Shown: in pieces, positions 2,651 to 55,157 of the stretch
Layout: each line of letters begins with the position of its first letter
Position numbering within the stretch: position 1 is the stretch's first letter
Source of the DNA: a virus
Taxonomy: Duplodnaviria > Caudoviricetes
DNA length: 57,922 bases
Strand: one strand, 5' to 3'
IMG/VR virus record: IMGVR_UViG_3300029787_000044
Location: 1-57,922 of that record
Made by a program: the position numbers and the translations under genes
The notes under the pieces: model-generated
Seen by the model: the letters and a program-made list of their open reading frames with translations, nothing else
Database searches by the model: none
What the model was told of the DNA's origin: nothing

Positions 2651-2752
2651 ACGCAATCCGCGGACCAAGGATACCACCCCTCCCCCCTTCTCCTTTACTT
2701 TATTTTTCTGGTTTGCTTTGCAAACACTTAATGTTTAGCTTATACTTCGAAG

Positions 2753-7932: not shown

Positions 7933-8133
7933 GTGGACTATATCATGGCTACGGAGCATTTGCTTCGTAAATATCGTGAGAGGATAGAAGCTCTCACGCA
8001 AACGCTTGCTTCTGGGAGTATTGAAGATTTTCAACAATACCAAAGGATAGTGGGTGAAATAACAGGTTTGAGGATCGCCGAACAGGAGATTCAAACCTTA
8101 CATTCTAATATGGAGGATGCATATGACGACTAA
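7933..8133 (+). CDS. Small helical hypothetical protein
   Basis: LASGSIEDFQQYQRIVGEITGL; lies between portal and GroES. Confidence 0.7.
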   Translation: MDYIMATEHLLRKYRERIEALTQTLASGSIEDFQQYQRIVGEITGLRIAEQEIQTLHSNMEDAYDD

Positions 8134-8578: not shown

Positions 8579-8596
8579 CAATCTTGAGGAGGACTC

Positions 8597-9502: not shown

Positions 9503-9504
9503 AA

Positions 9505-26623: not shown

Positions 26624-26892
26624 TGGACATAGTCCAACTAGTTTCCGAGTTTGGATTTCCTGTAGTAATGGTAGTTGGGTTAGGTTATTTCGTTTATTTT
26701 GTTTGGCAAACGGTAACTAAAGTCATAGATCCTGCTGTAGGTGAAATGAAGAAAACTATAATACGCCTAACCGATCAATTACGTTTATTAGACCAAGACA
26801 TGATAAGACTACAACAAAAAGTAAACACAGTATTAGAACTTAAAGAACAGGAGGCATTAGATAATGACAACAAAAAAGAAAAAACTAAATAA
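26623..26892 (+). CDS. Small single-TM protein B of the curli-like operon
   Basis: LVSEFGFPVVMVVGLGYFVYF TM followed by a coiled coil with DQDMIRLQ. Confidence 0.75.
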   Translation: MDIVQLVSEFGFPVVMVVGLGYFVYFVWQTVTKVIDPAVGEMKKTIIRLTDQLRLLDQDMIRLQQKVNTVLELKEQEALDNDNKKEKTK

Positions 26893-27364
26893 TTCTCAAA
26901 AATCACCTACGGTTAGTATAGCCGTAACTATTGGAGTTATTTTATTAGTAGGAATTTTTGGACAAGATCTGTGGGCTGATCAAATAACGCATAAATTTAA
27001 ATCACCCTCTTTTAGTGGCATTAATACATCTAGTCATTATCTTACGATTGAAAACCAAGAGTTTAATAGACGACAAACAATTAAAGATGAACTTAAAGCT
27101 GCTATAGAAGAAGCAGAAAGAGATAAAGAAAATTCTACAGTACAAAGATTTATTCGTAACTTTGAGTCAAGAGTCTACGCTGAATTATCAAGACAACTTA
27201 TAGCTAACTTATTTGGAGAAACTCCACAAGATAGCGGAACTATAACCTTAGAAGGTAATACGATAGAATATAGTTCAGATGGAACTTATTTAACCCTTAA
27301 AATAACTGAGGCTGATGGAACAATCACTCATATTACGATTCCTATTGGTAGCTTCACTTTCTAG
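26864..27364 (+). CDS. csgF: Curli assembly protein CsgF homologue
   Basis: Signal peptide followed by ITHKFKSPSFSG...LTIENQE (cf. CsgF F-x-NP-x-FGG...L...AQ); L-x2-QL-x3-LFG; adjacent to csgG. Confidence 0.8.
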   Translation: MTTKKKKLNNSQKSPTVSIAVTIGVILLVGIFGQDLWADQITHKFKSPSFSGINTSSHYLTIENQEFNRRQTIKDELKAAIEEAERDKENSTVQRFIRNFESRVYAELSRQLIANLFGETPQDSGTITLEGNTIEYSSDGTYLTLKITEADGTITHITIPIGSFTF

Positions 27365-28187
27365 TTGTTCTATCTTTGACCAGTTTGAAGATACTTATGA
27401 ACAAAGATTTAAAGCTCACGATATAGTTAAAATAGAAGAACTACATTCTAAAGAATTAGCTTTAGTAAATAAACCTATGATTCAGCCCATAGTTGCTGTA
27501 TATCCTACATCATTTACAGATCAAACAGGACAAAGAAAAAGTAATAGTGAGTTTGCTTTATTTTCTACAGCAGTCACACAAGCACCCCATACTTTATTAA
27601 TTAGAGCACTTAAACACGCAAGTAATGGTGAATTTTTTAGAGTTGTAGAAAGAATTGGTTTAGATAATTTAACTAAAGAACGTCAGCTTATAAGATCAGC
27701 TAGAGAGCAATTTGCCACAGATGAGGAAAAAAAGAAACAGCTTGCTCCTTTGTTATTTGCAGGAGTGTTGCTTGAAGGTGCAGTTATAAGCTATGATAGT
27801 AACTTAACCACTGGTGGCATCGGTGCACGGTATCTCGGTATAGGTACTAGTATTCAATACAGAGAGGATAACATTACAGTAAGTTTGAGGATGGTATCTG
27901 TAGCAACTGGTGAAATACTTATAGAAGTATTAAGCCAAAAAACCATATTCAGTTATGGTAAGTCAGAAGACATTTTCAGATTCATTGAAATGGGAACCGA
28001 ACTTGTAGAAGTCGAGTTAGGAAACTCGCGTAACGAGTCTACGACGATAGCCCTAATGAAAGCTATCGAAGGGGCAGTTTTAGAACTTATTACTATCGGT
28101 TACGATAGAGGATTTTGGAAACATGAAGAACTTAAAATTAATGAGCCTGATTGTGATGCTAAGTGCATTGCCAACATTCGCGGCTGA
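27315..28187 (+). CDS. csgG: Curli secretion channel CsgG homologue (lipoprotein)
   Basis: Lipobox LSSC; VAVY...F-x-DQTGQRK, STAVTQ, F-x-VVER-x-GL-x-NL-x-KERQ-x-IR, EG-x3-YDSN-x2-TGG-x-GARYLGIG, V-x-LR-x-VSV-x-TGEIL. Confidence 0.95.
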   Translation: MEQSLILRFLLVASLSSCSIFDQFEDTYEQRFKAHDIVKIEELHSKELALVNKPMIQPIVAVYPTSFTDQTGQRKSNSEFALFSTAVTQAPHTLLIRALKHASNGEFFRVVERIGLDNLTKERQLIRSAREQFATDEEKKKQLAPLLFAGVLLEGAVISYDSNLTTGGIGARYLGIGTSIQYREDNITVSLRMVSVATGEILIEVLSQKTIFSYGKSEDIFRFIEMGTELVEVELGNSRNESTTIALMKAIEGAVLELITIGYDRGFWKHEELKINEPDCDAKCIANIRG

Positions 28188-28854
28188 TAACGAAATATAT
28201 TTAGACCAAAGCGGTACTACACTTAATTTAGATATAGAACAACTAGGTATCTCTAACATTATAGGTGGCTTGCAATCTACAGCAGGCAGTCTTACAGCTT
28301 TTGATATTGATGGTACAAGTATGACTATTGATATTAATATGATTGGAAACACTAACAAGTTTCTTGGTGATATATGGGCAGATAGCTTTACTGGTTTTTA
28401 TGAATTCACTGGTAATAGCAATACTTTTACAATACAAGTTGACCCAAGTAACACCTTTGGTGCTGACAGTTCTAATCAAAATATAGCTGTTACTGGATCA
28501 AGTAATACTTTTACTTTAAATCAAGGTACTACTGCATTAGCAGGAACTTTAGATTTAGATTGGATTATTCAAGGTTCTAACAACACAGTTGTATCTAATA
28601 TTAATATTGATGGTGCAACTAACTATATGGATATAGATGGTTCTGATAATACAGTTAATTATACTGGAACAGGAGTAACAGCTTCAGCAGGCGGATATTT
28701 TTGGCTAGATCACACAGGTGGACAAAGAACATTTAATATTCAACAACTGAGTACACAAGATAATGACTGGCTTAAAGTTATATCGGTTGGCGGGAACGCT
28801 GCTTCTACTGTTTGTATTATTCAAAACGACCAAGGTACAAGCACAAGCTGCTGA
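28123..28854 (+). CDS. Secreted curlin-like beta-solenoid protein
   Basis: Signal peptide, then ADNEIYLDQSG...IEQLGISN and repeated G-x2-N-x3-(I/L)-x-Q units rich in N/Q/G/S/T. Confidence 0.7.
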   Translation: MKNLKLMSLIVMLSALPTFAADNEIYLDQSGTTLNLDIEQLGISNIIGGLQSTAGSLTAFDIDGTSMTIDINMIGNTNKFLGDIWADSFTGFYEFTGNSNTFTIQVDPSNTFGADSSNQNIAVTGSSNTFTLNQGTTALAGTLDLDWIIQGSNNTVVSNINIDGATNYMDIDGSDNTVNYTGTGVTASAGGYFWLDHTGGQRTFNIQQLSTQDNDWLKVISVGGNAASTVCIIQNDQGTSTSC

Positions 28855-29881
28855 TATTGGGGATATATCTGAACTAAATGGTTCAGCGCAAATAGTAAGA
28901 GATGAGCCTTTAGACGCTACTTTAAAGTTTGCTATTCAAAGCAATGATGAAGCTATTACTACTAACGGTAGAATGGCTATAACTTTTCTTGATGATTCTA
29001 CAGTTAAACTAACTGAACACTCACAACTTTTAATAGATGAATATATCTATGATCCCGATCCTTCTAAAGCTAAAATGGCACTTACGTTTGGACTCGGTAC
29101 AGCTCGATTTATTACGGGTAATTTAAACAAAATAGATAAACAAAATATATCTTTAAAAACACCTACAGCAAACATAGCGATTCGTGGGACAGATTTCACG
29201 GCTACCGTTGACGAGCTAGGACGTTCACTTATTATTTTACTCCCCGATTCTTTTGGGTTGTCTAGCGGGGAAATAGAAGTGGTTACTGCTATGGGTAGCG
29301 TATTACTTAATAAACCTTATCAAGCCACAACAGTAAGTGTTTTTGAATCTAAGCCCAGTAAACCTGTTGTATTAGATTTAACTTTAGACATTATAGACAA
29401 CATGTTAATTGTTACGCCTCCTAAAGAAGAAATCACTCAAACAGAAGAAGTAGCAAGTAATACAAAAGCTAACATATTAGATTTTAATGATCTTGATATA
29501 GACTATTTAGATGAAGACTTTTTTGCTGAAGATGAATTAGAGTTTACAGAATTAGATATAAATTATTTAGATGTAAATTTTCTTGAAGATCTATTAAATA
29601 TATTAGACTCATTAGCGATTTCGGAAGATGAAGACGTTTTAGCAGATGCAGGCAGCATAACTCTTAGCGGAACTAAAATAGGACAAGACCCAGACACACA
29701 AATAACCACCTTAGTTACAGGTAATGTAATTAGTCTTAGACGAAAAGTAAATGATTCAGTTAGATTAGACTTAGACAGTGGTGGAGCATACACAGTTATT
29801 ATTATTCAAGATGGAGTTAGTAATGTAGTAAAAATAAATGGTGGTGGCGATTCTAATATAACCATAACGCAAAGTGAATAA
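28763..29881 (+). CDS. FecR-domain periplasmic protein with acidic linker
   Basis: Signal peptide; D-x-I-x-T-x2-G...ITFLDDSTVKL-x-EHS-x-L...G-x-ARF-x-TG...KTPTA-x-IAIRGTDF FecR signature. Confidence 0.85.
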   Translation: MTGLKLYRLAGTLLLLFVLFKTTKVQAQAADIGDISELNGSAQIVRDEPLDATLKFAIQSNDEAITTNGRMAITFLDDSTVKLTEHSQLLIDEYIYDPDPSKAKMALTFGLGTARFITGNLNKIDKQNISLKTPTANIAIRGTDFTATVDELGRSLIILLPDSFGLSSGEIEVVTAMGSVLLNKPYQATTVSVFESKPSKPVVLDLTLDIIDNMLIVTPPKEEITQTEEVASNTKANILDFNDLDIDYLDEDFFAEDELEFTELDINYLDVNFLEDLLNILDSLAISEDEDVLADAGSITLSGTKIGQDPDTQITTLVTGNVISLRRKVNDSVRLDLDSGGAYTVIIIQDGVSNVVKINGGGDSNITITQSE

Positions 29882-31610
29882 ACTTTTATTACCTATATTA
29901 ATATTACTTAGTTTACCTTTGGTGTTTCAAAGCACGCCAACAGAAATACTTAAATTAAAAACTTTTGATAGTTTAATTAAACAACAAGAGCCCAGTGGTA
30001 ATTTTGTAATACTTAACATTACAGAAGAAGATATAGAACGTGAAGGTGGATATCCTTTACCTAGAACAAGATTAGCTGATATCCAAATAGAATTATTAAG
30101 TAAAGGTGCTATAGGTGTTGGTTGGGTAATTAGTTTTCCGCAAGCGGATAGGTTAGATGGAGATAAAGATTTTGCTAGGTCACTGGGCTACGCTCCTGCA
30201 GTTCTTGCAATGTTTGAAGACGGTAAAGGCATTTATCCTGCTAGTCCAGGAACAGTAGTTTTAGGTGAAAACACAGGAGGTATTAACAGTTCGGGAGTGA
30301 AAGCTAATCACACATCATATGATGATGTTCTGCAGGGATTAGCTATAGCTCCCACCGATGTAGATTTACTTGTAAGAAGAATGCCTTTGTTAGTAAAAAC
30401 TCCTAATAACGAATGGATACCTAGTTTTGGTACACAAATATATAAAGCTTTGTTTGGTATAAAAACATATATTATCAAAACTAACGAAAACGGTATACAG
30501 GAAATAGCGATACGCGGAATACCGCCTGTTAAAACAGATAGTTTAGGTCGTAAATGGATTTCATGGGTTAATACACAACAAACAGATTTACAAGAAATGG
30601 AAGTAAACGGTAAATTTGTTATAGTAGGTGTAACAGCTAATGGGGTTATGCCACAGATAGCCACGCCTATTGGACTTGTTGAGCCGCATAAAATACAAAC
30701 GGCTCTTGCAGAATCTATCCTAATACAAGATAGTCCTTACATACCTGATTATTCTTTAGCTTTAGAACTTCTTATATATTTAGTTTCTGTAAGCCTCGTA
30801 TGGGCTTTTATAAGCTATTTAGGGATAACTTGGGGTATTTCTCTAGCTTTAATTACGATGGCTTTAACGGGCTTCTACGGTTATTACACAATAACTACAG
30901 GAATCCTTATAGATATAACTTGGTCGTTAGTCTCACAATTTATAACAGGAGCTATAGCTTTTTATTTAAGGTTTAGAGAACAATATAAATTAAGACAACA
31001 GATTAAAAAACAGTTTGAACATTACTTAGATCCTAGACAAGTAAAACGTTTACAAAAAGACCCTGATTTATTAAAACTAGGTGGAGAAAAAAGAAGATGT
31101 ACTTTCTTGTTCACAGACGTTAGAGGATTTACAGCTCTTTCTGAAACGTTACCTCCTGAAGAAGTTACTGAAATAATGAATAAAGCATTAACTGTTCAAG
31201 TTGAGTGTGTACAAAAAAGAGGAGGCATGGTAGATAAATTCATTGGTGACGCAATGATGGCTATCTTTAATGCACCTATGGATTTAGAACAACACGAAGA
31301 ACTAGCGGTTCAATGCGCTAAAGAAATACAAGAAAATATAAATAAAGCAAACATTGGAATAGCTATTGGGGTTGGGGTTAATACTGGAGAAGCTGTGATA
31401 GGCAACATGGGCAGTGACACTAGATTCGATTATTCGGCTATTGGGGATGCGGTTAATACGGCGGCTAGGCTAGAGTCTGCTACTAAAGAAGCAGGTGTAA
31501 ACATACTTATTGGAGAAGAAACTAAGAAATATTGTGGTATTTCCTTAAAACGATTAAAACCTATAAAAGTAAAAGGTAAAGAAAAACCTTTAAAAATATA
31601 CACGTTTTGA
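29874..31610 (+). CDS. CHASE2-domain class III adenylate cyclase
   Basis: N-terminal TM, CHASE2-like periplasmic region (G-x-YP-x-PR, D-x-D-x2-VRR-x-PL, GK-x-V-x-VG), 3 TMs, then FTDVRGFT, DKFIGDAMM, GNMGS-x2-RFDYSAIGDAVN-x-AARLE; K and D specificity residues indicate ATP. Confidence 0.93.
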   Translation: MNKLLLPILILLSLPLVFQSTPTEILKLKTFDSLIKQQEPSGNFVILNITEEDIEREGGYPLPRTRLADIQIELLSKGAIGVGWVISFPQADRLDGDKDFARSLGYAPAVLAMFEDGKGIYPASPGTVVLGENTGGINSSGVKANHTSYDDVLQGLAIAPTDVDLLVRRMPLLVKTPNNEWIPSFGTQIYKALFGIKTYIIKTNENGIQEIAIRGIPPVKTDSLGRKWISWVNTQQTDLQEMEVNGKFVIVGVTANGVMPQIATPIGLVEPHKIQTALAESILIQDSPYIPDYSLALELLIYLVSVSLVWAFISYLGITWGISLALITMALTGFYGYYTITTGILIDITWSLVSQFITGAIAFYLRFREQYKLRQQIKKQFEHYLDPRQVKRLQKDPDLLKLGGEKRRCTFLFTDVRGFTALSETLPPEEVTEIMNKALTVQVECVQKRGGMVDKFIGDAMMAIFNAPMDLEQHEELAVQCAKEIQENINKANIGIAIGVGVNTGEAVIGNMGSDTRFDYSAIGDAVNTAARLESATKEAGVNILIGEETKKYCGISLKRLKPIKVKGKEKPLKIYTF

Positions 31611-44840: not shown

Positions 44841-46364
44841 ATGTCGTTAGCAGAGAATTTTGCTAAACGCTATGCGGGATTACGCTCAGCTTATGGAACT
44901 TTTACGGCAAGTAATGACACCAGAGAAGATGGCAAGGCAAGTGGTAAAAACATAACAATATCCAAGGAGTTGTCTGATAAAGACCTCCTTGGACTGTGGG
45001 AAAATCACTTGTCTGGTCAGCAAAGCGTAGGGATCGTAGCGATAGATGAGACAAACAGTTGTGTTTGGGGAGCTATCGATGTTGATGAGTATCAGCTCGA
45101 CCTTAAAGACTTAGCTATAAAAATAGCCAAACAAGAATTACCTCTTGTACTTTGCCGTAGTAAAAGTGGAGGAGCTCATCTATATATATTTCTTAATGAG
45201 CCTATTGCTGCTTCTATGTTACAAAGAAAACTAAGACAAATAGCCGCATCAATCGGATACGGGCAAGCAGAAATATTTCCAAAACAAACTAAACTATTAC
45301 TAGACAGAGGAGACAGAGGAAGTACATTAAACATGCCATATTTTGGTGGAGAAAACTCTACTAGATATGCTTACGGTAAAGAAGGAGAAGCACTAAGCCC
45401 ACAAGAATTTTTAAACTATATAGAAACTATAGAACTAACACCTAATCAATTAGAAAAACTAGAAGCAAGTCCGTTAACTGAGTCAGTCGAATGGTTAGAC
45501 CAAGCTCCGCCTTGTATCCAACATTTAATAGTGCAGGGTTTTCCTAAAGGCACGAGAAACTCAGGTTTGTTTAATGTAGGAGTTTTCTTACGTAAGAAGT
45601 TTCCTGACGATTGGGAAAAACGATTAGAAGATGTTAATATTCAATACATGCAACCCCCATTAGGAGCACAAGAAGTTTTAACGATAGGTAAACAGTTACA
45701 AAGAAAAGATTATTTCTATAAATGTAATGACCAACCTATAGCTAGTCACTGCAATAGTCCGTTATGTAGAACACGTAAGTTTGGTATTGGTGCTAACGGT
45801 GGCACACCTTTATTTAGTAACTTAACAAAACAAGACAGCGATCCCCCTATATGGTTTTTAGATGTTGAGGGAGGACGTTTAGAATTAGAGACAGATGATC
45901 TACTAAACCAAAATAGATTTCAGCGTAAATGTATGGACGCTTTAAACAAGATACCACCTAAAGTAAAAGAAAATGTGTGGCGTCAGATTATACAACAGTT
46001 ACTCGATGTTATCACTATTGTAGAAGTTCCTATGGAAAGTTCTACTGAAGGACATTTTATGGAGCTGTTGGAAGCTTTTTGCACAGAAAGACCTGCTAGA
46101 GAAAGAGACGAATTATTATTACATAAACCTTGGACAGACAAAGGCAGGACTTACTTTAGGTTATTAGATTTAATGGATTATTTACATAGAAATAATTTTA
46201 AAGAGTATCAAAGAAATAAACTAACATCAAAATTAAAACAGCTTCACGGAGAACCTTATTTTTTCAACATAAAAGGCAAAGGGGTAAACGTGTGGTTTAT
46301 AGAAGAATTTAAAACCCAAGACGAACCTCACGACTTACCTGATTTTAATGATAATTTATTATGA
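44841..46364 (+). CDS. Primase (AEP/primpol-like with PriCT-like domain)
   Basis: WGAIDVD, RSKSGGAHLYIF, EIFPKQ, LNMPY, PPC...G-x-RN, Cys cluster. Confidence 0.8.
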   Translation: MSLAENFAKRYAGLRSAYGTFTASNDTREDGKASGKNITISKELSDKDLLGLWENHLSGQQSVGIVAIDETNSCVWGAIDVDEYQLDLKDLAIKIAKQELPLVLCRSKSGGAHLYIFLNEPIAASMLQRKLRQIAASIGYGQAEIFPKQTKLLLDRGDRGSTLNMPYFGGENSTRYAYGKEGEALSPQEFLNYIETIELTPNQLEKLEASPLTESVEWLDQAPPCIQHLIVQGFPKGTRNSGLFNVGVFLRKKFPDDWEKRLEDVNIQYMQPPLGAQEVLTIGKQLQRKDYFYKCNDQPIASHCNSPLCRTRKFGIGANGGTPLFSNLTKQDSDPPIWFLDVEGGRLELETDDLLNQNRFQRKCMDALNKIPPKVKENVWRQIIQQLLDVITIVEVPMESSTEGHFMELLEAFCTERPARERDELLLHKPWTDKGRTYFRLLDLMDYLHRNNFKEYQRNKLTSKLKQLHGEPYFFNIKGKGVNVWFIEEFKTQDEPHDLPDFNDNLL

Positions 46365-46945
46365 TAAGATACATTAAAAAATATTTTAAAGAAATTAATC
46401 CGTACATAGAAGAGTGGGATAAGCCTAGAGAAAGAGAGTTCAATGGCTCTATGGTTAAAGGCAGACCTACGAAAGGGTTTGGCAGTTCTTCTTTTAACTA
46501 TGCAGGTAAATTGTATAAACCCACACCATGGACTCCTGCCATGTACAATCTTAAACAAGAAGCAGAACGTTTAGTTTGGGAGGAGTTAGGTATCGACAAA
46601 CAGTTCACGTTTTGTTTATGCGGTTACTATGGGGTAGACGGAAAAGGCATACCGCATCACTCAGATACAGTACCTACACTAGATGACATAGTGGTTTCAA
46701 TATCGTTAGGTGCTCCTAGAGTATTTGTACAACGCACCTATCAAAACAATGTAAAAACACATACGGACACTAGCGAAATAGAAACTAAAATAGAGAATTT
46801 TATAATAGATGAAAAACATTATATTTTAGAGGACGGAGATGTACTTATTTTTGATGGGCATAATCAAATGAAGTCTACCCACGCCGTACCTGATTTAGAA
46901 AAAGCAGGAACAAGAATCAATTTAACTTTTAGGAGTGGTTTGTGA
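46361..46945 (+). CDS. AlkB-like 2OG-Fe(II) dioxygenase
   Basis: Y...GIPHHSD (HxD), SISLGAPR-x-F, L-x-DGD, STHAVP, RINLTFR. Confidence 0.9.
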   Translation: MIRYIKKYFKEINPYIEEWDKPREREFNGSMVKGRPTKGFGSSSFNYAGKLYKPTPWTPAMYNLKQEAERLVWEELGIDKQFTFCLCGYYGVDGKGIPHHSDTVPTLDDIVVSISLGAPRVFVQRTYQNNVKTHTDTSEIETKIENFIIDEKHYILEDGDVLIFDGHNQMKSTHAVPDLEKAGTRINLTFRSGL

Positions 46946-48438
46946 CATTACCTAGTCATACACAAGTTATTCTTGGACCTCCAGGAACAGGAAAGACGAG
47001 CACTTTACTGGGTTTGATAGAAGATGAATTAGAAAGTGGCACACAACCAGAAGGTATAGGTTTTTTTACTTTTACTAAAAAAGCTGTAAAAGAAGGCAAA
47101 GAACGAGCAATAAATAGGTTTAATATAAGCAACAAAGAGCTACCTTTTTTCAGAACTTTACATTCTTTAGCTTTTAGACAACTAGGATTAACTAGAGAAA
47201 GCGTAGTTAGTCATACAGATATAAAAGATCTAAATGAAAAACTTAATTTAAAATTAACAGGCAGAACAACTTCTGATGACGGTCATTTATTCGGTATGAC
47301 ACACGATGACAGATTAGCGTTTATAGAAAATCTTGCTCGTATGCGAGACATACCTTTAGAACAACAATGGCATGAAGTTGATGATGCGGTAGGTTGGTTC
47401 GAACTAGAACGATTTGCTAGAGGATTACGGTTATTTAAAGAAGACAGATTATTAGTTGATTATACAGACATGTTACAAAAATTTCTTGTAGAAGGAGATG
47501 TGCCTCGACTCGATGTAATGTTTGTAGACGAGGCTCAAGATTTATCTCCTTTGCAGTGGGCGGTGGTGCGTAAGTTAGCAGAAAACTCTAAAAAGATTTA
47601 TGTAGCGGGAGATGATGATCAAGCTATTTATAAGTGGGCAGGGGCTGATGTAGATTATTTAATTAAAAATTCTAAAGACGCCATGATATTAAAACAATCG
47701 TATCGTGTTCCATCTTCTGTACATACGGTAGCTAAACAGTGTATTGGACAAGTTCGTTCTCGAATATATAAGGAATGGACTCCTAGAAAAGAAGAAGGAT
47801 TAGTGCGTTGGGAACCTAATATAGAATTAGTAAACATGGAAGAAGGAGACTGGCTTGTTTTAGCTAGAACTAATTATTTGTTAGAAGAAGTTGATGAGTA
47901 TTGTAGAAACGAGGGTTGGTTTTTTGAAGTAAAAGGTAGACCTAGTATATCAGAAGCCAAAGTACGAGCAGTAATCCATTGGGAAAGTTTATCTAAAGGA
48001 CAAAGCGTATCTTTGAACGAGTGCGCTAATATTTTAAAATACATTAAAGTTGACAAACCTAAAAAATTAGACATGCTAGATTCTGATTTAACTCTACAGT
48101 ACCAAGATTTTAAATCTCATTTTCCTGACCTGCCTGATGGTCATTGGTATGATGTTTTTAATTTATTAAGTGCTAAAGAGATTAGTTACATAAGAGCTAT
48201 GTTACGTAGAGGAGAAAAGATAACCAAACTTCCTAGAATACGTTTATCTACTATCCATGCTGCTAAAGGCGGCGAGGCTACCAACGTAGTATTGTTAACA
48301 GATATAACTTCAAGAGTGTATAAAAATTATCAACAAAACCCTGATGATGAAAACAGGGTGTTTTATGTAGGAGTAACAAGGACTAAAGAAAACCTCTATT
48401 TAATAGAGCCTAAAACAACACGCTGCTATCAGTTGTAA
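46942..48438 (+). CDS. UvrD/Rep-like SF1 helicase
   Basis: GPPGTGKT, FRTLHS, VDEAQD, GDDDQAIY, QSYR, STIHAAKGGEA, YVGVTR. Confidence 0.95.
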   Translation: MTLPSHTQVILGPPGTGKTSTLLGLIEDELESGTQPEGIGFFTFTKKAVKEGKERAINRFNISNKELPFFRTLHSLAFRQLGLTRESVVSHTDIKDLNEKLNLKLTGRTTSDDGHLFGMTHDDRLAFIENLARMRDIPLEQQWHEVDDAVGWFELERFARGLRLFKEDRLLVDYTDMLQKFLVEGDVPRLDVMFVDEAQDLSPLQWAVVRKLAENSKKIYVAGDDDQAIYKWAGADVDYLIKNSKDAMILKQSYRVPSSVHTVAKQCIGQVRSRIYKEWTPRKEEGLVRWEPNIELVNMEEGDWLVLARTNYLLEEVDEYCRNEGWFFEVKGRPSISEAKVRAVIHWESLSKGQSVSLNECANILKYIKVDKPKKLDMLDSDLTLQYQDFKSHFPDLPDGHWYDVFNLLSAKEISYIRAMLRRGEKITKLPRIRLSTIHAAKGGEATNVVLLTDITSRVYKNYQQNPDDENRVFYVGVTRTKENLYLIEPKTTRCYQL

Positions 48439-48444
48439 AAGTCC

Positions 48445-48474
48445 TTTACTTTGCATATAATTATAAAGTATATT
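48445..48474 (+). promoter_or_regulatory. Promoter (CTTTACTTTG variant) for the DNA repair/modification operon
   Basis: TTTACT 48445-50, 18 bp, TATATT 48469-74; followed by the AGAAAGGAGAAA RBS. Confidence 0.55.
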
Positions 48475-48503
48475 ATTTAAGTGTTTAAAGAAAGGAGAAA
48501 ACA

Positions 48504-49004
48504 ATGAACATATTTTATTTTAACAAAGACCCTGAGGTTTCTGCTAAAGCACAACCTGACAAGATGTTAGTCAAAATGCCTTTAGAAACCGCACAGATGT
48601 TATGCACAGCTCATCGTATATTAGATGGAGACGAGTATGCAGACGAAGTTGGTTTATATAAAAAAGCTTACATGAACCATCCGTGCACTATATGGGCTAG
48701 AGAATGCAGTGGTAATTACTGGTGGCTCTATAAACATTTTTTAGCGTTAGGTAATGAATATACTTATCGCTACAATCGTAATCACCTTAGTTTGGATAAA
48801 CTAGCTGATGCCTTATACGTGATGCCTAAAAACATTACTAAAGGTCTTATGACCGACGTAGCACAAGCTATGCCTGATGAGTACAAAAACGAGGACTCTA
48901 CTCTCGCTTACCGTAATTACGTTATCAATGAAAAACATTACGCTAAATGGGAGAAGGGTAGAAATAAACCAAGTTGGTGGGAGGTAAATCAATGTCATCA
49001 ATAA
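48504..49004 (+). CDS. Pyrimidine-dimer DNA glycosylase-like (DenV/endonuclease V-related) protein
   Basis: MNIF...DK-x2-VKMPLE-x-AQMLCT, NHPCT-x-W, EY-x2-RY-x3-H, QAMPDEYK, AYR-x-Y. Confidence 0.75.
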   Translation: MNIFYFNKDPEVSAKAQPDKMLVKMPLETAQMLCTAHRILDGDEYADEVGLYKKAYMNHPCTIWARECSGNYWWLYKHFLALGNEYTYRYNRNHLSLDKLADALYVMPKNITKGLMTDVAQAMPDEYKNEDSTLAYRNYVINEKHYAKWEKGRNKPSWWEVNQCHQ

Positions 49005-49843
49005 GAAAGAAACTGCTCGTTAATGAAAACGACAGTAAAAATACTAGAATGGATATAGCTAGTGCGGGTGTATTAGCAAACTGGCGACCTGATGAAATAG
49101 CTCATATGAGCCGTTTCGATAATATAGCTTCTATGTGTATAGAAGAAGCTAAACGATTAGGTAGACCATTAGATACTTTTGAAGTAGGTTGTGGAGAGTG
49201 CTGGACTTTAAGAAATTTGTATAAAGCATATGTCATCAAGAAATCAGATGTCATTAGCTCTTATTATGGTTACGATATAGATCCTGCGTGTGAAATGGAA
49301 AATCCTTTTTGGTCTAATGCAGGTAATCCATTAAAAGACTCTACGTGGTTCAAGAATTTTAATGGTGAAATACGTATTCAAGATTTAACGACTAATCCTG
49401 TATTTGATTTAAAAGACGAAAGCATCGATTTCTTTTGGACTACTGAAGTTATAGAGCACATGGGTAAAGAGTTTATTTCTGCATGGTTAGATGATGCGGC
49501 TAGGGTTATACGACCTAACGGATTAATTTTTGTTTCTACTCCTAATCATGAAGGCTCTAACGACAAGTTACCTGAAGACCATGTATATGAATGGGGTTTT
49601 AAAGAACTTAAAGATGAATTAGAAAGGAATTTTAAGCTAATAGATGTAACAGGAACGTTTATACAACTTCCTAATTTAAAGAAAGCTATAAAAGAAGACT
49701 CTAATTTTCCTTCAAGAGGATGGAGTTTAGAGCAACTAGAAATGCTTAAAGCTAGGTATGGTAGACAGTTTCTACGTGTAGTAGCAGCAGCACCCTACCC
49801 TGAGTACGCTAATAATTGTTCATGGATATTAAGGAAAAAATAA
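48992..49843 (+). CDS. Class I SAM-dependent methyltransferase
   Basis: FEVGCG motif I, YGYDID motif II, D-x5-EVIEH, R-x2-RPNG-x4-STPN; RBS GGAGG supports 48992. Confidence 0.88.
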   Translation: MSSIRKKLLVNENDSKNTRMDIASAGVLANWRPDEIAHMSRFDNIASMCIEEAKRLGRPLDTFEVGCGECWTLRNLYKAYVIKKSDVISSYYGYDIDPACEMENPFWSNAGNPLKDSTWFKNFNGEIRIQDLTTNPVFDLKDESIDFFWTTEVIEHMGKEFISAWLDDAARVIRPNGLIFVSTPNHEGSNDKLPEDHVYEWGFKELKDELERNFKLIDVTGTFIQLPNLKKAIKEDSNFPSRGWSLEQLEMLKARYGRQFLRVVAAAPYPEYANNCSWILRKK

Positions 49844-49845
49844 TT

Positions 49846-50022
49846 ATGAAACTTAATTTTGAAACGAAAAAACCTAACACCACAGGAATTCAATTTAGAA
49901 TTGATCCAGACACTAAGAAAAAGTTAAATGCTTTGAAAAAGTTTTATGGAGTAGGTACAGGGGTTTTAATTAAACAAATGATTACTGAATGTCATCTTTC
50001 ATTAGCGGACATAGACAAATAA
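49846..50022 (+). CDS. Small putative ribbon-helix-helix DNA-binding protein
   Basis: GIQFRIDPDTKKKLNALKKFYGVGTGVLIKQMI has the alternating strand plus two helices pattern. Confidence 0.55.
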   Translation: MKLNFETKKPNTTGIQFRIDPDTKKKLNALKKFYGVGTGVLIKQMITECHLSLADIDK

Positions 50023-50024
50023 CC

Positions 50025-50930
50025 ATGTTTATTCAAGAAGAACTGGATCGTTATTGCTATTGGCAAGTAGAACGAGAGAATATACGTCTACAAAAAGAGA
50101 TATCAAAACTCCCGTCTCCGTGGACTGATGATCCAATTCTTCGCGAGTTTAAATTTTGCCAAGTTTTTAGAGAAGACGACAGAACTACTCGATGGTTTAG
50201 AACACATATAAGAGAACCTTTGTATTATTCTCCTGATGTTTTTATGGCTACTATTATATTTCGTTGGTTTAATTTTATAGACACAGGAAGAACTTTGATA
50301 GAACATGATTTATTACTAAACTGGGACAGGAAAAAAGCAATAAATGAAATAACTAAACAACCTAAATGGATAACTGGAGCTTATATCGTTAAAACACCTA
50401 ACGGTATGGATAAAGTTACAGGAGTTTCTGAGTGTATTTCTCATATGTGGAATGATAGAAAAAAGCTAGTTGATAAAATTAGTCAATGCGATTTATTAGA
50501 AGAAACATGGGAACTATTAAGAGATTATCCATACATGGGACCTTTCATGGCTTATGAGGTGGTTACTGATTTAAGGCATACTTATCTATTAGGCAACGCT
50601 AAAGACGTGCTTACATGGGCTAACGCAGGTCCAGGAGCTATGCGAGGATTAAATAGATTAACAGGCAGAGAGCTAGGTTATTCTAAACGTAGCCATGATT
50701 GGGTAGGTGAGATGAGAGCTTTATACAAAGAGGTACAGGCTAAACTTCCTGCTCACATCTTAAATAGAAATGAAATGAACTATGAAATGCGTGAAATAGA
50801 AGGAGGACTTTGTGAGTTTGATAAGTATTCGAGGATACTAAAAGGCGAAGGTAGAACAAGGTCTGTATATAAACCGAATGATCTTCCAATAGTAGAAGAT
50901 TTAATAGAAGGAGAAAGTAAATATGGGTAG
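50025..50930 (+). CDS. 5-hmdU DNA kinase-like protein (aGPT-Pplase1 family, helical domain)
   Basis: ER-x2-I...PWTDDPIL-x2-FKFC-x-V-x-REDDR-x-T, FRWFN, GAY, G-x-FMAYEVVTD, GPGA-x-RGL, IE-x2-LCEFDKY-x-R. Confidence 0.85.
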   Translation: MFIQEELDRYCYWQVERENIRLQKEISKLPSPWTDDPILREFKFCQVFREDDRTTRWFRTHIREPLYYSPDVFMATIIFRWFNFIDTGRTLIEHDLLLNWDRKKAINEITKQPKWITGAYIVKTPNGMDKVTGVSECISHMWNDRKKLVDKISQCDLLEETWELLRDYPYMGPFMAYEVVTDLRHTYLLGNAKDVLTWANAGPGAMRGLNRLTGRELGYSKRSHDWVGEMRALYKEVQAKLPAHILNRNEMNYEMREIEGGLCEFDKYSRILKGEGRTRSVYKPNDLPIVEDLIEGESKYG

Positions 50931-51144
50931 AGTCAATGAATACTCAGTAGAACTATTAGAAGATTGGGGCGACTCAGTTGATATATATTACACACAATTT
51001 TTAGAGGTAGCATTCTTTTTAAGAGTACCTGCATCACAAGATATGGCTATCGCTTTTGTAAAAAGAAAGCTTCCGCGTCTATCGGAAAGTGAAATAAACT
51101 TTTTAATTGGAGAAATTATAGAGGGCTATCACAGCACTTTATAA
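50923..51144 (+). CDS. Small hypothetical protein
   Basis: RBS GAAGGAG; overlaps the previous stop. Confidence 0.6.
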   Translation: MGRVNEYSVELLEDWGDSVDIYYTQFLEVAFFLRVPASQDMAIAFVKRKLPRLSESEINFLIGEIIEGYHSTL

Positions 51145-51151
51145 GAAAACA

Positions 51152-51250
51152 ATGTTAGAGTATTTAAGTAAATTAATAGACAGATTATTAGAGTTATCGT
51201 TAAAAAGAACTGCTAATAAAATGTCAAGGAGAAAGAATGAAGGTAATTAA
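51152..51250 (+). CDS. Possible tiny protein (not in ORF track)
   Basis: MLEYLSKLIDRLLELSLKRTANKMSRRKNEGN* fills the gap before the TS homologue; weak RBS. Confidence 0.35.
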   Translation: MLEYLSKLIDRLLELSLKRTANKMSRRKNEGN

Positions 51251-52277
51251 TGCACGAAATGTAAACGACGCTCTACTTTTAGGCATAGATTTATTTAATG
51301 ATAAAACTAATTATAGAGTTCAAGAAAGCCGTAATGGAGATACTTATGAAGCAATAGATCCAGTGACAACTGTTTATAACCATCCTTGGGAAAGGGTTTG
51401 TTTAATAACAGAACGGGACGCTAATCCATTTTTTCATTACATAGAAGGTTTGTGGATGCTAGCAGGACGTAAAGATTTAAAACCATTAACTTTTTTTGTT
51501 AACTCTATGAAAGATTTTTCAGATGATGGCAAAACTTTATGGGGAGCTTATGGTTGGAGATGGAGAGACTACTTCCATAAAGACCAATTAGATATTATTA
51601 TTACTATGTTAAAAACAAATCCTGATGATAGACGTTGTGTTTTGCAGATGTGGGATGCTAATAAAGATTTAAATAGGCAAGGCAAAGATGTTCCTTGTAA
51701 TACTAATATTTATTTTAAAGTTAGAGACAATAGATTGCACATGACTGTTTGTAACAGATCTAACGACATGTTGTGGGGGGCTTATGGAGCTAATGTAGTA
51801 CACATGTCAATGCTTCAGGAGTATATAGCCTCTATGATAGGAGTGTCTATGGGAGTGTACAGGCAGGTTAGTGATAGTTTTCATGTGTACTTAAATCCTG
51901 TTTGGGATAAAGTTAAAGACATAGAAATAGACATATACACTCAACGTGAGGTAAAAAACCCTTACGACAGCTTAGACGAACATGTTGCTTTAATTACTGA
52001 CTGTGATAGTTTTGACAGAGAGTTAAAAAGATTTTTTAATATTAATCCTATGGATTTTGATGTTGTTGATTATGGTTGGCAAAATGCAGCCTTTATTGAC
52101 ATAGCTATACCTATGATGCAATGTTACGCTGCTTACAAAATAGGTGAATTTGATTATGCTTATGAAAAAGCAGGAAATATTAAAGCTCACGATTGGAAAA
52201 AGGCATGTCTCGAATGGATCCGCAAGAGAGAGATGTCACTTATTAATAAAGCGGATATAGGAGGAACTCATGAGTAA
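51237..52277 (+). CDS. Thymidylate synthase homologue, probably dUMP hydroxymethylase
   Basis: SRNG, GAYG-x-RWR, DQL, RR-x-V, catalytic D-x-PCN, RSND-x2-WG-x3-N (Asn indicates dUMP specificity), SFHVY; lies next to the 5-hmdU kinase-like gene. Confidence 0.85.
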   Translation: MKVINARNVNDALLLGIDLFNDKTNYRVQESRNGDTYEAIDPVTTVYNHPWERVCLITERDANPFFHYIEGLWMLAGRKDLKPLTFFVNSMKDFSDDGKTLWGAYGWRWRDYFHKDQLDIIITMLKTNPDDRRCVLQMWDANKDLNRQGKDVPCNTNIYFKVRDNRLHMTVCNRSNDMLWGAYGANVVHMSMLQEYIASMIGVSMGVYRQVSDSFHVYLNPVWDKVKDIEIDIYTQREVKNPYDSLDEHVALITDCDSFDRELKRFFNINPMDFDVVDYGWQNAAFIDIAIPMMQCYAAYKIGEFDYAYEKAGNIKAHDWKKACLEWIRKREMSLINKADIGGTHE

Positions 52278-52632
52278 ATGGGAAAAAATGAAAGATATCG
52301 CTCAAAACGATTTATCAGCTCTACAAAAAGCTGAGACGTCTTATGGCGACTCTTGGAGACGTCGTGGAGGTGTTGGTGCCTTTATGATGTTAGCACGTAA
52401 ATTCGATAGAATCGAGCATCAGTCGCAAAAGCACGGGTGGGACGTATTCGAGGCAGGTGAAGTCTATGTGGGCGAAGCAGGTCTACTCGATGATATTAGA
52501 GATTTACGTAGATATTTATTATTAGTTGAAGAATACATCTTAGACAACACCGTAACAAAATACGAAGATCTTCCTTATGAAGAAGTTGACGATGTAAATT
52601 ATTCTGCCGAAGATGGCAGAGAGGAGGATTAA
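52270..52632 (+). CDS. Nucleotide-modification-associated (Nmad1 / all-alpha NTP pyrophosphatase-like) protein
   Basis: K-x3-YGDSW-x2-RG...RK-x2-R...LDDIRDL-x2-Y. Confidence 0.65.
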   Translation: MSKWEKMKDIAQNDLSALQKAETSYGDSWRRRGGVGAFMMLARKFDRIEHQSQKHGWDVFEAGEVYVGEAGLLDDIRDLRRYLLLVEEYILDNTVTKYEDLPYEEVDDVNYSAEDGREED

Positions 52633-52633
52633 T

Positions 52634-52957
52634 ATGGGATTTTGGGCAAAATTTATTGCGTTTATAACACCACCACCCACTGAAAAGAAAGTGGACGAGG
52701 TTATGAAAGCTAAAGTAATTAAATCAGCTGTACAAACAGCTACAGTAACATTAGATAAATTTGATGATGCTTCTGTTGTTAAAGCAAAACCTAAAAGAGC
52801 TAGAACCAAAAAAGGCACTTACAAAGCCGATAATAAATCTACGCCTGATGTAAATGAGGCTTGGGTAGGTGGTAAAGCTCCGACTAAAAAGAAAAAGACC
52901 ACAACAAAAACGAAGAAGCCTAAAGCTAAAACAGTTAAGGTTACTAAGAAAAAGTGA
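52634..52957 (+). CDS. Lys-rich hypothetical protein
   Basis: RBS GAGGAGG; KRARTKKG-x-YKAD-x2-STPDVNEAW motif, basic tail. Confidence 0.7.
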   Translation: MGFWAKFIAFITPPPTEKKVDEVMKAKVIKSAVQTATVTLDKFDDASVVKAKPKRARTKKGTYKADNKSTPDVNEAWVGGKAPTKKKKTTTKTKKPKAKTVKVTKKK

Positions 52958-54822
52958 TCTTACAACAGCCAATTTTTACTCCTAAAAGCGATTGGTCAGT
53001 ACCTGATGTTTTTCCTCAGTTCTCTGAGACAGAAACAATAGCTATTGATTTAGAAACTTACGATCCGCATCTCATGACTTGCGGTCCTGGATGGGCTACA
53101 AGTCGTGGGCATGTTGTGGGCATAGGAATAGCTACTAAAGATTGGCAAGGTTATTTTCCTATACGTCATTTAGGCGGAGGAAATTTAGATGAAGGTTTAG
53201 TTATACGTTGGTTGACTAACACACTCGCTTCCGAAAAACGGGACGTGGTTTTTCACAATTCACTCTACGATGTAGGGTGGTTAAAAAGAGAAGGTGTTGA
53301 AGTTAAAGGCAGGATATTAGATACCATTGTTGCTGCTCCTCTTGTTAATGAAAATAGATATTCTTATTCTTTAGATAATCTAGGTGAGTTTTACTGCGAT
53401 GAAAAGAAAGATGAGTCTTTGTTACAAGATGCAGCTTTATCTTTTGGAGTTAATCCTAAATCAGAGATGTATAAACTACATTCTAAATATGTTGGACCTT
53501 ATGGTGAGCAAGACGCAGCCTTGACTTTAAAACTTTGGGATAAGTTAAAAGTAGAGATTGCTGAGCAAAACTTAGAACAGATATTAGATATGGAGTGTAG
53601 GCTTATACCTTTGTTATTAGAAATGCGTTGGAGAGGAGTTAGGGTAGATGAAGAAAAAGCAGATACCATAAGCAAACAACTCTCTATGCAAGAGCAAAAG
53701 ATATTGGTGGAGATTAAAAGACAGTATGGTGCTGAAGTAAATCTTTGGGCTAATGCTTCTTTACAGGCTATTTTTGAAAAGAATAAAATCTGGTATCCTA
53801 GAACAGCAAAAGGTATGGCAAGTTTTCAAAAAGAATGGCTAGAAGGACATGAGCATGAATTACCTCAACTTATTGTTAAAGCACGAAAGCTAAATAAAGC
53901 TAGAACGACTTTTATTGATAAGATGATTAAAGACCATTGTTTTAATGGTAGAATACACGCGGAAGCTCATGCTATGCGTAACGATCGTGGTGGCACAGTT
54001 AGTGGCAGGTTCAGTTATAGTAACCCTAATCTACAACAAGTCCCTGCACGCGACCCAGAAATAGGTAATTTGATACGATCTTTATTTATTCCTGAAGAAG
54101 GGTGTCAGTGGGGTGTTTTTGATTATTCACAACAAGAACCTAGACTTACCGTGCATTATGCTGATCAGATGAATTTAAACGGTGCTAAGAATGCAGTTTC
54201 TCAATATAGAGACGATAATGCAGACTTTCACCAAATAGTCGCAGACATGGCTAAAATACCACGTAAACAAGCTAAAACAATTAATTTAGGATTAAGTTAT
54301 GGAATGGGTAAAGAAAAACTTATTAATGAATTAGGCATAGATGATATAGAAGCTGAGAAATTATTTCAGCAGTATCATGCTAACGTGCCTTTTATCCGAG
54401 CTCTACAAGATCAATGTGCAAGAGTAGCAATGGATAGAGGTTATATAAAAACATTTGCAGGTAGGCGTTGCCGTTTCGATCTATGGGAAAGTAGATATGA
54501 ACGCACTCTACCTTTACCTCTTGAAGAGGCAAGAGAAAAATACGGTGATAATTTAAAACGATCATATACTTACAAAGCTCTGAATCGTTTAATCCAAGGC
54601 TCAGCCGCTGACATGACAAAGTTAGCTATGTTGGGTTTATGGGAGGAAGGAATAGTTCCTCACCTACAAGTTCACGATGAAGTTGATATTTCAATAGAGA
54701 ACACTGAACAAGCTAATACAGTAGCCAACATAATGGAAAACTGTGTACAACTTGCAGTTCCCCTATTAGTGGACATGGAACTCGGAAGTTCATGGGGCGA
54801 AACAAAGGACATAAAAAGATGA
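52954..54822 (+). CDS. polA: DNA polymerase family A with 3'-5' exonuclease
   Basis: IDLET ExoI, FHN-x2-YD ExoII, SGRFS-x3-PNLQQ, DYSQQEPR motif A, R-x2-AKTINLGLSYG motif B, QVHDE motif C. Confidence 0.97.
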   Translation: MILQQPIFTPKSDWSVPDVFPQFSETETIAIDLETYDPHLMTCGPGWATSRGHVVGIGIATKDWQGYFPIRHLGGGNLDEGLVIRWLTNTLASEKRDVVFHNSLYDVGWLKREGVEVKGRILDTIVAAPLVNENRYSYSLDNLGEFYCDEKKDESLLQDAALSFGVNPKSEMYKLHSKYVGPYGEQDAALTLKLWDKLKVEIAEQNLEQILDMECRLIPLLLEMRWRGVRVDEEKADTISKQLSMQEQKILVEIKRQYGAEVNLWANASLQAIFEKNKIWYPRTAKGMASFQKEWLEGHEHELPQLIVKARKLNKARTTFIDKMIKDHCFNGRIHAEAHAMRNDRGGTVSGRFSYSNPNLQQVPARDPEIGNLIRSLFIPEEGCQWGVFDYSQQEPRLTVHYADQMNLNGAKNAVSQYRDDNADFHQIVADMAKIPRKQAKTINLGLSYGMGKEKLINELGIDDIEAEKLFQQYHANVPFIRALQDQCARVAMDRGYIKTFAGRRCRFDLWESRYERTLPLPLEEAREKYGDNLKRSYTYKALNRLIQGSAADMTKLAMLGLWEEGIVPHLQVHDEVDISIENTEQANTVANIMENCVQLAVPLLVDMELGSSWGETKDIKR

Positions 54823-55157
54823 AAGGTATTTCAGAAATAAAAGCAAAAGAAAATTCAGTTAAATATAGAACCATGTATGAACAGTGGTTAGAACAAAAAG
54901 TTACTTTAGAACAGCTTGGTAAAAAACACGACATAACTAAGCAACGTATGTGGCAAATAGTCACACGTTGTAAACTTGGGGAAGGTGATTATTATTATGG
55001 AGTGCAAATAGCTAGGAATAAATGGTCAGAATTTAAGTCACTCTACTCTGATGTTAACCAAACTCAACGAGCTTTTAATGAATGGTTAAAAGAAAAAGAC
55101 GTTAAATTAACAGCAAACAATCAAAAAGTTGCTCCGCATACAGGATGGGACTGGTAA
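54819..55157 (+). CDS. HTH protein (sigma70 region 4-like)
   Basis: TLEQLGKKHDITKQRMWQI resembles the TL-x-EIG-x4-T-x-ER-x-RQI HTH. Confidence 0.6.
   Translation: MKGISEIKAKENSVKYRTMYEQWLEQKVTLEQLGKKHDITKQRMWQIVTRCKLGEGDYYYGVQIARNKWSEFKSLYSDVNQTQRAFNEWLKEKDVKLTANNQKVAPHTGWDW

Follow-up and report, generated by a model that had tools for sequence, protein, structure and literature searches.

A Hen1-like methyltransferase beside a thymidylate synthase homologue and a PF18723 protein in an uncultured tailed phage: a candidate for O-methylation of 5-hydroxymethyluracil in DNA

We analysed the IMG/VR virus record IMGVR_UViG_3300029787_000044, taken as the whole entry of 57,922 bases (linear, CheckV completeness 94%) and referred to as the window throughout. 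A gene for a Hen1-like class I methyltransferase (MT) that uses S-adenosylmethionine (SAM) is located next to genes for a protein of family PF18723 (HEL) and for a thymidylate synthase (TS) homologue, while a DNA kinase and an amino acid:DNA transferase (AADT) are absent. The gene set suggests that MT may O-methylate 5-hydroxymethyluracil (hmU) on DNA, giving 5-methoxymethyl-2'-deoxyuridine. We put this forward tentatively, as a plausible explanation that falls short of being probable. To our knowledge, every thymidine hypermodification pathway worked out so far starts from 5-hydroxymethyl-2'-deoxyuridine (5-hmdU), which is phosphorylated on DNA before the phosphate is displaced by an amine or alcohol. 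Phage DNA modification based on 5-hydroxymethylpyrimidines is already known, and it is the tailoring chemistry that may not have been described before.

The initial annotation of this DNA had placed a thymidine hypermodification cluster with a methyltransferase and without a transferase at 48992-52632. These positions run exactly from the start of MT to the stop of the gene o120, and the genes are real. The type of cluster and the position of MT in a slot for tailoring enzymes were borne out by our analysis; the labels of a kinase and a pyrophosphatase within it were not. The genes that carry the argument are:

48992..49843, + strand: MT, Hen1-like class I SAM methyltransferase, 283 amino acids from ATG
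50025..50930, + strand: HEL, PF18723 'HMUDK_hel' protein, 301 amino acids from the ATG at 50025, with the reading frame open from 49989 (313 amino acids)
51237..52277, + strand: TS, thymidylate synthase homologue, 346 amino acids
52954..54822, + strand: PolA, family A DNA polymerase with 3'-5' exonuclease (PF00476, E 5.5e-63; PF01612, E 1.8e-9)

The methyltransferase, the thymidylate synthase homologue and HEL

MT matched the Pfam families Methyltransf_23 (E 1e-7) and Methyltransf_11 (E 9.7e-7) and gave a weak match to UbiG in NCBIfam. None of the DNA-methyltransferase motifs [DNS]PP[YFWH], PC[QK] and ENV was found in its sequence, which agrees with its first description as a class I methyltransferase lacking them. 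SAM motif I is present as F-E-V-G-C-G at residues 63-68 (G66, G68), E152, E155, H156 and H197 form a candidate metal tetrad, and S-T-P-N is located at 182-185. The family is phage-specific and of modest size: a threshold of E≤1e-3 yields 356 cluster representatives, and one of E≤1e-10 yields 65. In an alignment of 41 members with 22-84% identity to the window protein, G66, C67, G68, D95, D131, E152, E155, H156, T183, P184, H197 and E200 were invariant or nearly so.

A search of all PDB sequences with the family profile returned human HENMT1 first (4xcx, E 5.6e-11; 5wy0, E 2.4e-10) and then bacterial Hen1 (4xrp, E 3e-10). Hen1-family chains made up 8 of the 17 top rows (including 3jwi, 3jwg, 3jwj, 3jwh and 3htx). 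Their alignments run through E-V-I-E-H, S-T-P-N and H-x-x-E-W of MT, while the other top rows, for UbiG and phosphoethanolamine methyltransferases with similar E-values, end earlier. The tetrad is aligned with E-L-I-E-H and H-K-F-E-W of HENMT1. Glu796, Glu799, His800 and His860 are described as the Mg2+ ligands of HEN1 (PMC10781085), and by alignment E152, E155, H156 and H197 of MT are predicted to be the counterparts of the residues that hold Mg2+/Mn2+ in HEN1 and HENMT1. MT has the tetrad, S-T-P-N, H-x-x-E-W and the class I fold in common with the Hen1 proteins (3htx, 4xcx, 5wy0, 4xrp, 3jwg-3jwj). It differs from them in being a single domain without dsRNA-binding, La or Pnkp partners and in its context, which is deoxynucleotide or DNA modification.

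The structure of MT was modelled with AlphaFold2 from the alignment (pLDDT, the predicted local distance difference test, 93); a single-sequence model with a pLDDT of 33 was discarded. Foldseek against the PDB returned only generic class I methyltransferases, with TM-scores of about 0.5. The best structural match was CmoM (8joz_A; Z 17.8, root-mean-square deviation (rmsd) 4.4, 221 residues aligned, 14% identity). The second top entry was 4htf (Z 17.3), which we take to be E. coli CmoM as well, and the next unrelated entry had a Z of 16.7. Comparison with HEN1 (3htx_D) gave Z 15.7 and an rmsd of 2.9 over 190 residues. CmoM (E. coli SmtA) converts cmo5U34 of tRNA to mcmo5U34 and is described as an O-methyltransferase whose target is the C5 side chain of this wobble uridine, within a polynucleotide (PMC4737166, PMC10516636). 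Unlike the substrate proposed for MT, that of CmoM is a carboxylate on tRNA, the identity is low, and the lead of CmoM over other class I methyltransferases is only 1-2 Z units. Compared with the Hen1 proteins, the MT family has a helix of its own at the N-terminus and a conserved tail, P-Y-P-E...W-x-L-R-K, at the C-terminus.

The TS homologue matched PF00303 (E 4.6e-24) and phrog_5131 (E 2.3e-111) and has the residues Cys154 and Asn186. Its best solved relative was the CMP hydroxymethylase MilA (E 4.1e-19), and the best true thymidylate synthase followed at E 4.3e-13. Matches in NCBIfam were to thymidylate synthases, all far below the cut-offs. Asn186 is aligned with the Asp of the cytosine-specific MilA, a position that presumably separates uracil from cytosine substrates; the earlier view of a divergent thymidylate synthase with the Asn of uracil-type enzymes was confirmed. 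The closest phage matches were the enzymes of the M6/YuA group (46-47% identity; M6 46.1%) and PaMx11 gp51 (42%). M6 and PaMx11 are described as deriving their modified thymidines from 5-hmdU (PMC8989533; PMC5889632). The TS homologue is probably a dUMP hydroxymethylase, and we infer this activity, rather than that of a methylase, because of its orthology to the M6 and PaMx11 enzymes.

HEL was described in the initial annotation as similar to a 5-hmdU DNA kinase, and this turned out to be misleading. It matched PF18723 only (E 3.1e-45; 155.3 bits against a cut-off of 25), with residues 19-285 of 313 covering profile positions 4-276 of 281. The full name of this family is '5-hmdU DNA kinase, helical domain'; among 3690 candidates scored, 2824 matched it at E≤1e-5. 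No Walker A motif or P-loop was found in HEL, and the sole Walker A motif in a real gene of the window belongs to a UvrD helicase. In PaMx11 the experimentally defined kinase is gp49, a separate P-loop protein of 189 amino acids, gp46 is the AADT (PF18724), and the neighbouring gp50 belongs to PF18723. HEL has 42% identity to gp50 and is the orthologue of gp50 and not of the kinase gp49.

We found no kinase and no transferase elsewhere in the window. Six-frame searches with PF18748, the kinase family, and PF18724, the AADT family, gave no match at E≤10. In the positive controls PF18748 was recovered from YuA (E 1.1e-19) and, weakly, from PaMx11 (E 9.4e-5), and PF18724 from YuA (E 5e-50) and PaMx11 (E 3.3e-29). 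PaMx11 gp46, gp47, gp48 and gp49 had no match in the window (gp49 by tblastn, E≤1), and no pyridoxal phosphate (PLP) or radical SAM family was present among the 67 window open reading frames (ORFs; 23 + 44) scanned against Pfam. The absence of an AADT, a PLP enzyme and a radical SAM enzyme had been noticed before, with the suggestion that the transferase could lie outside the window. The window is, however, the whole record, and in 12 of 12 relatives with a completeness rating of 100%, of which one has terminal repeats, both PF18748 and PF18724 were absent at E≤1. We concluded that the absence of the two genes is not due to the missing 6% of the record. Since there is no DNA kinase, methylated phospho-hmU, which had been offered as an example of the product, has no basis.

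The PF18723 clade is listed as a paralogue of the transferases (aG/PT-PPase), with M6 gp55, ViI gp160 and the C-terminal half of SP10 gp186 as members and a DNA-glycosylase-like fold predicted for these (PMC5889632). M6 gp55 is reported to be dispensable for glycinylation in vitro (PMC8989533). A 2026 paper on the transferases does not mention the clade (PMC13458397), and we found no paper that assigned an activity to it. An alignment of 12 HEL members (38-83% identity) revealed the block E-x-x-L-C-E-F-D-K-Y, in which Cys263 and Glu264 are invariant; the AADTs of PaMx11 and YuA contain the block E-T-I-L-C-K-W-K. A Cys and a nearby Glu are described as essential in AADTs (PMC8989533; PMC13458397). 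The ADDT profile matched HEL of phage PhiJL001 weakly (E 7.8e-4), and the nearest language-model neighbours of HEL outside the PF18723 clusters were ADDT clusters (score 0.91-0.92). HEL gave no match to PDB sequences at E≤10. HEL belongs to this uncharacterised sister clade of the amino acid:DNA transferases and is a paralogue of the 'missing' transferase. The equivalence of the Cys residues of HEL and AADT is only a suggested one, because a profile-profile comparison of the two (hhalign, shallow alignments) did not reach significance (E 0.15, probability 0.4%). A prediction of an MT-HEL complex, run without controls, gave a score of 0.00 and a mark of 0.32 and speaks neither for nor against binding.

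Gene linkage and tailoring genes in related phages

Megablast of positions 46000-55000 against a collection of 50,697 deposited phage genomes gave no match, so a near relative is lacking there. Relatives of the window phage are numerous in marine metagenomes; the search with MT returned 247 matches at E≤0.001, many of which come from Tara and further marine collections. Around 80 IMG/VR loci with 64-100% MT identity we found HEL directly after MT in 80/80, TS in 78/80 (the other 2 end just after HEL) and PolA in 77/80. Because these loci form one syntenic lineage, the counts show retention of the genes and not independent association.

A second set was anchored on HEL and consisted of the best 80 of at least about 595 PF18723 loci in IMG/VR. 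MT was present in 75 of these 80; three were cut off upstream, and two (L169 and L170, HEL 52% identical) are real exceptions. Both keep the UvrD-HEL...TS backbone in the absence of MT. Between HEL and TS they contain a protein of 349 or 346 amino acids and a radical SAM/SPASM enzyme (L169 5956-8903, L170 5995-9299), and L170 also a cupin, which possibly represents another kinase-less hmU chemistry. Linkage of the trio in a different order was seen in L171, a metagenome contig with high G+C content, in which HEL (29% identical), TS (34%) and MT (46%) are adjacent as HEL-TS-MT (2224-4840). Its HEL block is L-C-E-Y-G-K-Y and its TS is of the Asn type. The co-occurrence of the methyltransferase with a 5-hmdU kinase across phages had been proposed as a check in the initial annotation; beyond this phage, MT was found linked to the PF18723 helical protein and TS. 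As single queries the distant MT members P0136 and P0220 returned no loci, P0162 returned one weak partial match that was not used, and PaMx11 gp50 matched PaMx11 alone.

The cultured marine phage PhiJL001 (AY576273; L089 5923-9772) encodes HEL (gp19), a TET-associated glycosyltransferase (gp22; TAGT, PF20691, E 2.7e-53), Nmad5 (gp23) and a TS homologue (gp24). No PF18748 kinase was found in its genome, and the gene set suggests glycosylated hmU. PhiJL001 resembles the window phage in having the same HEL family and no kinase, and differs in its cap, a sugar instead of the methyl from SAM proposed here. In PaMx11 and YuA, the corresponding slot is occupied by the kinase and AADT together with flavin adenine dinucleotide (FAD) and GNAT enzymes or PLP and radical SAM enzymes. 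HEL and TS are the constant core, and the neighbour varies: kinase plus transferase, glycosyltransferase, radical SAM enzyme or MT. MT sits in an exchangeable slot for tailoring enzymes next to HEL and TS, and a single shared hydroxyl would be the target of kinase, glycosyltransferase and O-methyltransferase alike. A similar logic is known from the T-even phages, where a TS-family hydroxymethylase makes a 5-hydroxymethylpyrimidine, namely 5-hydroxymethylcytosine (hmC), and a glucosyltransferase caps its hydroxyl.

The clusters of M6/YuA and PaMx11 (PMC5889632; PMC8989533) have the TS homologue (42-46%), the adjacent PF18723 protein and a downstream family A polymerase in the same order as the window. 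PolA of the window is 40% identical to PaMx11 gp55. In contrast to those clusters, the window has no P-loop kinase, AADT, PLP, radical SAM, FAD or GNAT enzyme, and the Hen1-like MT is found in their place. Of the 5-HMUDK/AADT pathway, only the TS-family hydroxymethylase is represented, by homology, and neither the kinase nor the AADT.

In the phage collection, homologues of MT were limited to five records (AXL3 twice, PW916, ctUtU524 and ct3Et533), with 25-30% identity and the same motifs. Four phages (L003, L004, which is AXL3 5851-9885, L086 and L087) have the order MT - NTP pyrophosphatase - TS homologue - dCMP deaminase. The NTP pyrophosphatase is of the PRA-PH type; of the four, only L003 and L004 have an annotated deoxynucleoside monophosphate (dNMP) kinase between it and TS. 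The TS homologue was of the Asp type in AXL3 and ct3Et533, the two that were checked; the Asp of AXL3 is aligned with the MilA Asp and with a TS Asn. AXL3 also has ThyX for dTMP. Its DNA is reported to resist 35 of 37 restriction enzymes and to be cut only by the two with A/T-only sites, and its authors concluded that G or C is modified (PMC7504290). The AXL3-type cluster (AXL3 gp27-gp31) is like the window in having a homologous MT directly beside a TS homologue; it is unlike the window in the cytosine-type Asp, the lack of HEL and the presence of an NTP pyrophosphatase, a dNMP kinase and a dCMP deaminase. Being the partner of both U-type and C-type hydroxymethylases, the MT family most simply acts on the 5-hydroxymethyl group that their products share.

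Explanations for the gene set

In the explanation we favour, the phage would swap some or all of its thymine for hmU. The TS homologue would make 5-hm-dUMP, host kinases would make the triphosphate, and PolA, the polymerase that would need to accept the modified dNTP, would incorporate it into DNA. MT would then act as a Hen1-type, metal-dependent O-methyltransferase and transfer the methyl group of SAM to the 5-hydroxymethyl oxygen on the DNA polymer. A divalent metal held by E152, E155, H156 and H197 would activate this oxygen, perhaps chelating it together with O4. The product, 5-methoxymethyl-2'-deoxyuridine, would need neither phosphorylation nor amino acid transfer, and 5-methoxymethyl-U is the simplest reading of the product. 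HEL may recognise and bind hmU, flip it, or add a Cys-dependent step of its own. A wider version, in which the MT family as a whole comprises O-methyltransferases of 5-hydroxymethylpyrimidines (yielding 5-methoxymethyluracil here and 5-methoxymethylcytosine in AXL3-type phages) and HEL is a catalytically active, Cys-dependent enzyme on hmU DNA, is possible, although we regard it as doubtful.

Several observations weigh against O-methylation of hmU on DNA. The lead of Hen1 in the profile search is thin (E 5.6e-11 compared with 3.1e-10 for the phosphoethanolamine methyltransferase and 4.7e-10 for UbiG), and the fold searches were nearly tied among class I methyltransferases, with HEN1 at Z 15.7 and the top entries at 17.3-17.8. 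The metal of Hen1 binds a vicinal 2',3'-diol, which DNA lacks; for this reason an RNA 3' end suits the tetrad no less well. The chemistry of the MT family is predicted here from sequence, fold and context. HEL is retained in all relatives, its Cys-Glu pair resembles the catalytic one of the AADTs, and a simple one-step methylation offers no role for HEL. Whether a TS-family protein is a methylase or a hydroxymethylase cannot be read from its sequence. The MT of AXL3-type phages stands among pre-replicative enzymes (NTP pyrophosphatase, dNMP kinase), which fits an action on nucleotides as well as one on DNA. Both 80-locus sets from IMG/VR come from one lineage and overlap each other, which leaves about three to four lineages as independent evidence of linkage. 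A natural methoxymethyl pyrimidine in phage DNA was not found in full-text literature searches; the query for Hen1, bacteriophage and hydroxymethylcytosine returned only a labelling review. O-methyltransferase domains are noted, without characterisation, near phage 5-methylpyrimidine dioxygenase (5mYOX) genes in a 2026 paper (PMC13229309).

The Hen1 similarity can also be taken at face value. MT would then be an RNA 3'-terminal 2'-O-methyltransferase, protecting for example the ends of tRNA or small RNA, or would act on some other substrate, and the DNA would hold plain 5-hmdU or T. The best profile matches are Hen1/HENMT1 and the complete tetrad for the ribose 2',3'-diol is kept; bacterial Hen1 is described as working in RNA repair (PMC3675462), and phages with hmU and no further modification are reported for the SPO1 group (PMC8989533). 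We nevertheless consider this reading unlikely. The 67 scanned ORFs contained no Pnkp, RNA ligase or dsRNA-binding domain, TS homologues neighbour MT in the window lineage and, with the gene order changed, in L171, as well as in AXL3-type phages and ct3Et533, and sister phages replace MT by other tailoring modules. The same O-methylation could also take place before replication, with MT acting on free 5-hm-dUMP (5-hm-dCMP in AXL3-type phages), followed by phosphorylation and incorporation by PolA. Against this, the MT slot of relatives holds enzymes that act on DNA (kinase/AADT, TAGT). The nearest solved relatives of MT, Hen1 and CmoM, act on polynucleotides, and host kinases would have to accept the bulkier nucleotide, as no dNMP kinase was found in the window. 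We judge this order of events distinctly unlikely, even though MT is the first gene of a nucleotide-pool run in AXL3-type phages and scores as a small-molecule type in Pfam, with the weak UbiG match in NCBIfam.

HEL itself could be the key enzyme. Its Cys would attack C6 and a nucleophile would be coupled to the C5 methylene without phosphorylation, while MT would methylate the added group, for example a carboxylate as CmoM does, giving a larger hypermodification. The similarity of the invariant block to that of AADT, with its essential Cys and Glu, the weak ADDT match of PhiJL001 HEL with the ADDT clusters as nearest neighbours outside the family, and CmoM as the best structural match are in line with such a route, as is SP10, in which the HEL clade is fused to the kinase and no clade-2 enzyme is listed (PMC5889632, Table 3). 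It appears improbable to us: all characterised transfers are described as needing 5-phosphomethyl-2'-deoxyuridine (5-PmdU) made by the kinase (PMC8989533; PMC13458397) and no kinase is present, M6 gp55 was dispensable in reconstitution (PMC8989533), and the comparison of HEL with AADT was not significant. We regard as very improbable that TS is an ordinary dTMP synthase, the DNA contains canonical T, and the cluster combines nucleotide metabolism with unrelated genes. The NCBIfam matches and the ambiguity of TS-family sequences would allow this, but the closest relatives are the M6, YuA and PaMx11 enzymes of hmU-derived pathways, the best solved relative is a hydroxymethylase, and HEL, whose family is known only from hmU-modifying phages, is always adjacent.

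Neighbouring genes and meaning of the proposed modification

The remaining genes from 48504 up to PolA are:

48504..49004, + strand: PyrEx, T4 endonuclease V-type 'pyrimidine dimer DNA glycosylase' family, 166 amino acids (PF03013, E 4.4e-9; phrog_624, E 1.6e-55)
49816..50022, + strand: o68, 68-amino-acid ORF with a weak match to RHH_1 (ribbon-helix-helix, E 0.03)
50923..51144, + strand: o73, 73-amino-acid ORF between HEL and TS
52270..52632, + strand: o120, conserved protein of 120 amino acids, no Pfam family matched
52613..52957, + strand: o114, Lys-rich ORF of 114 amino acids between o120 and PolA

The genes of the cassette are co-directional and abut or overlap. The assumption of one operon received no support, as promoter-like and terminator-like sites occurred at chance level (33 found and 34.2 expected; 6 found and 4.8 expected). 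PolA lies downstream as previously stated, starting at 52954 past o114, which is present in 59/80 MT-anchored loci and matched no family. The 3' end of PyrEx overlaps the start of MT. PyrEx is accessory (41/80 loci), and we rejected it as a candidate for the missing transferase on account of this count and because it is unrelated to PaMx11 gp45. The ORF o68 occupies an insert of 181 nt (49844-50024) between MT and HEL and was found in 1/80 related loci; in most relatives HEL starts a few bases from the MT stop. It is probably not part of the system. The accessory o73 (52/80 loci) matched no family.

The protein o120 is more strongly retained (77/80 loci). Eighteen aligned sequences have 44 invariant columns, with the blocks S-Y-G-x-S-W-x-R-R-G-G and G-L-L-D-D-I, and the gene sits where PaMx11 and PhiJL001 carry an HD-domain protein. 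It had been taken for an Nmad1-like pyrophosphatase, an assignment that we do not uphold: it has no Pfam match, PF07659/DUF1599 gave nothing in six frames of the window at E≤10, and 0/18 homologues matched that family at E≤10. The sole lead to DUF1599 was a neighbour cluster in the Atlas language-model search, in which 11% of the members have this domain. The o120 profile found nothing meaningful among PDB sequences (best E 1.5), and comparison with the PRA-PH-type NTP pyrophosphatases of AXL3-like phages (hhalign) gave a probability of 0.07%.

An AlkB-type oxygenase dependent on 2-oxoglutarate and Fe(II) is encoded at 46361-46945, two genes upstream of MT (PF13532, E 1e-19), and is accessory (59/80 loci). 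It could repair stray alkylation. We rejected it as a thymine dioxygenase, as it matches PF13532, no TET/JBP family was reported, and it occurs in only these 59 loci. The phage is of the tailed type, with terminase, capsid, SU10-type adaptors and a long tail fibre in the first 25 kb and a replication module at 41-57 kb of the window. A gene for a Cpn10/GroES-like co-chaperonin is located amid the head genes (8117-8578; PF00166, E 5.4e-10). Four consecutive genes at 26864-31610 are unusual in a phage and encode a CsgF-like protein (PF10614, E 3e-14), a CsgG-like curli secretion channel (PF03783, E 2.8e-47), a protein with a FecR domain and a CHASE2 sensor fused to an adenylate/guanylate cyclase.

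If O-methylation by MT is true, ether-capped hydroxymethyl pyrimidines would be a new chemical class in natural DNA, reached by a kinase-independent route, and in the wider version two DNA bases not described before, 5-methoxymethyluracil and 5-methoxymethylcytosine, would be added. The pathway would also open a first way into the function of the PF18723 family. For labelling hmU or hmC in DNA, a small SAM-dependent enzyme able to alkylate these bases would be useful. The idea is directly testable, with AXL3 as a cultured phage that has the cytosine-side version and restriction-resistant DNA. The lineage of the window phage is common in ocean metagenomes, and the DNA of this abundant marine phage, which is uncultured, may contain a base that has not been described.

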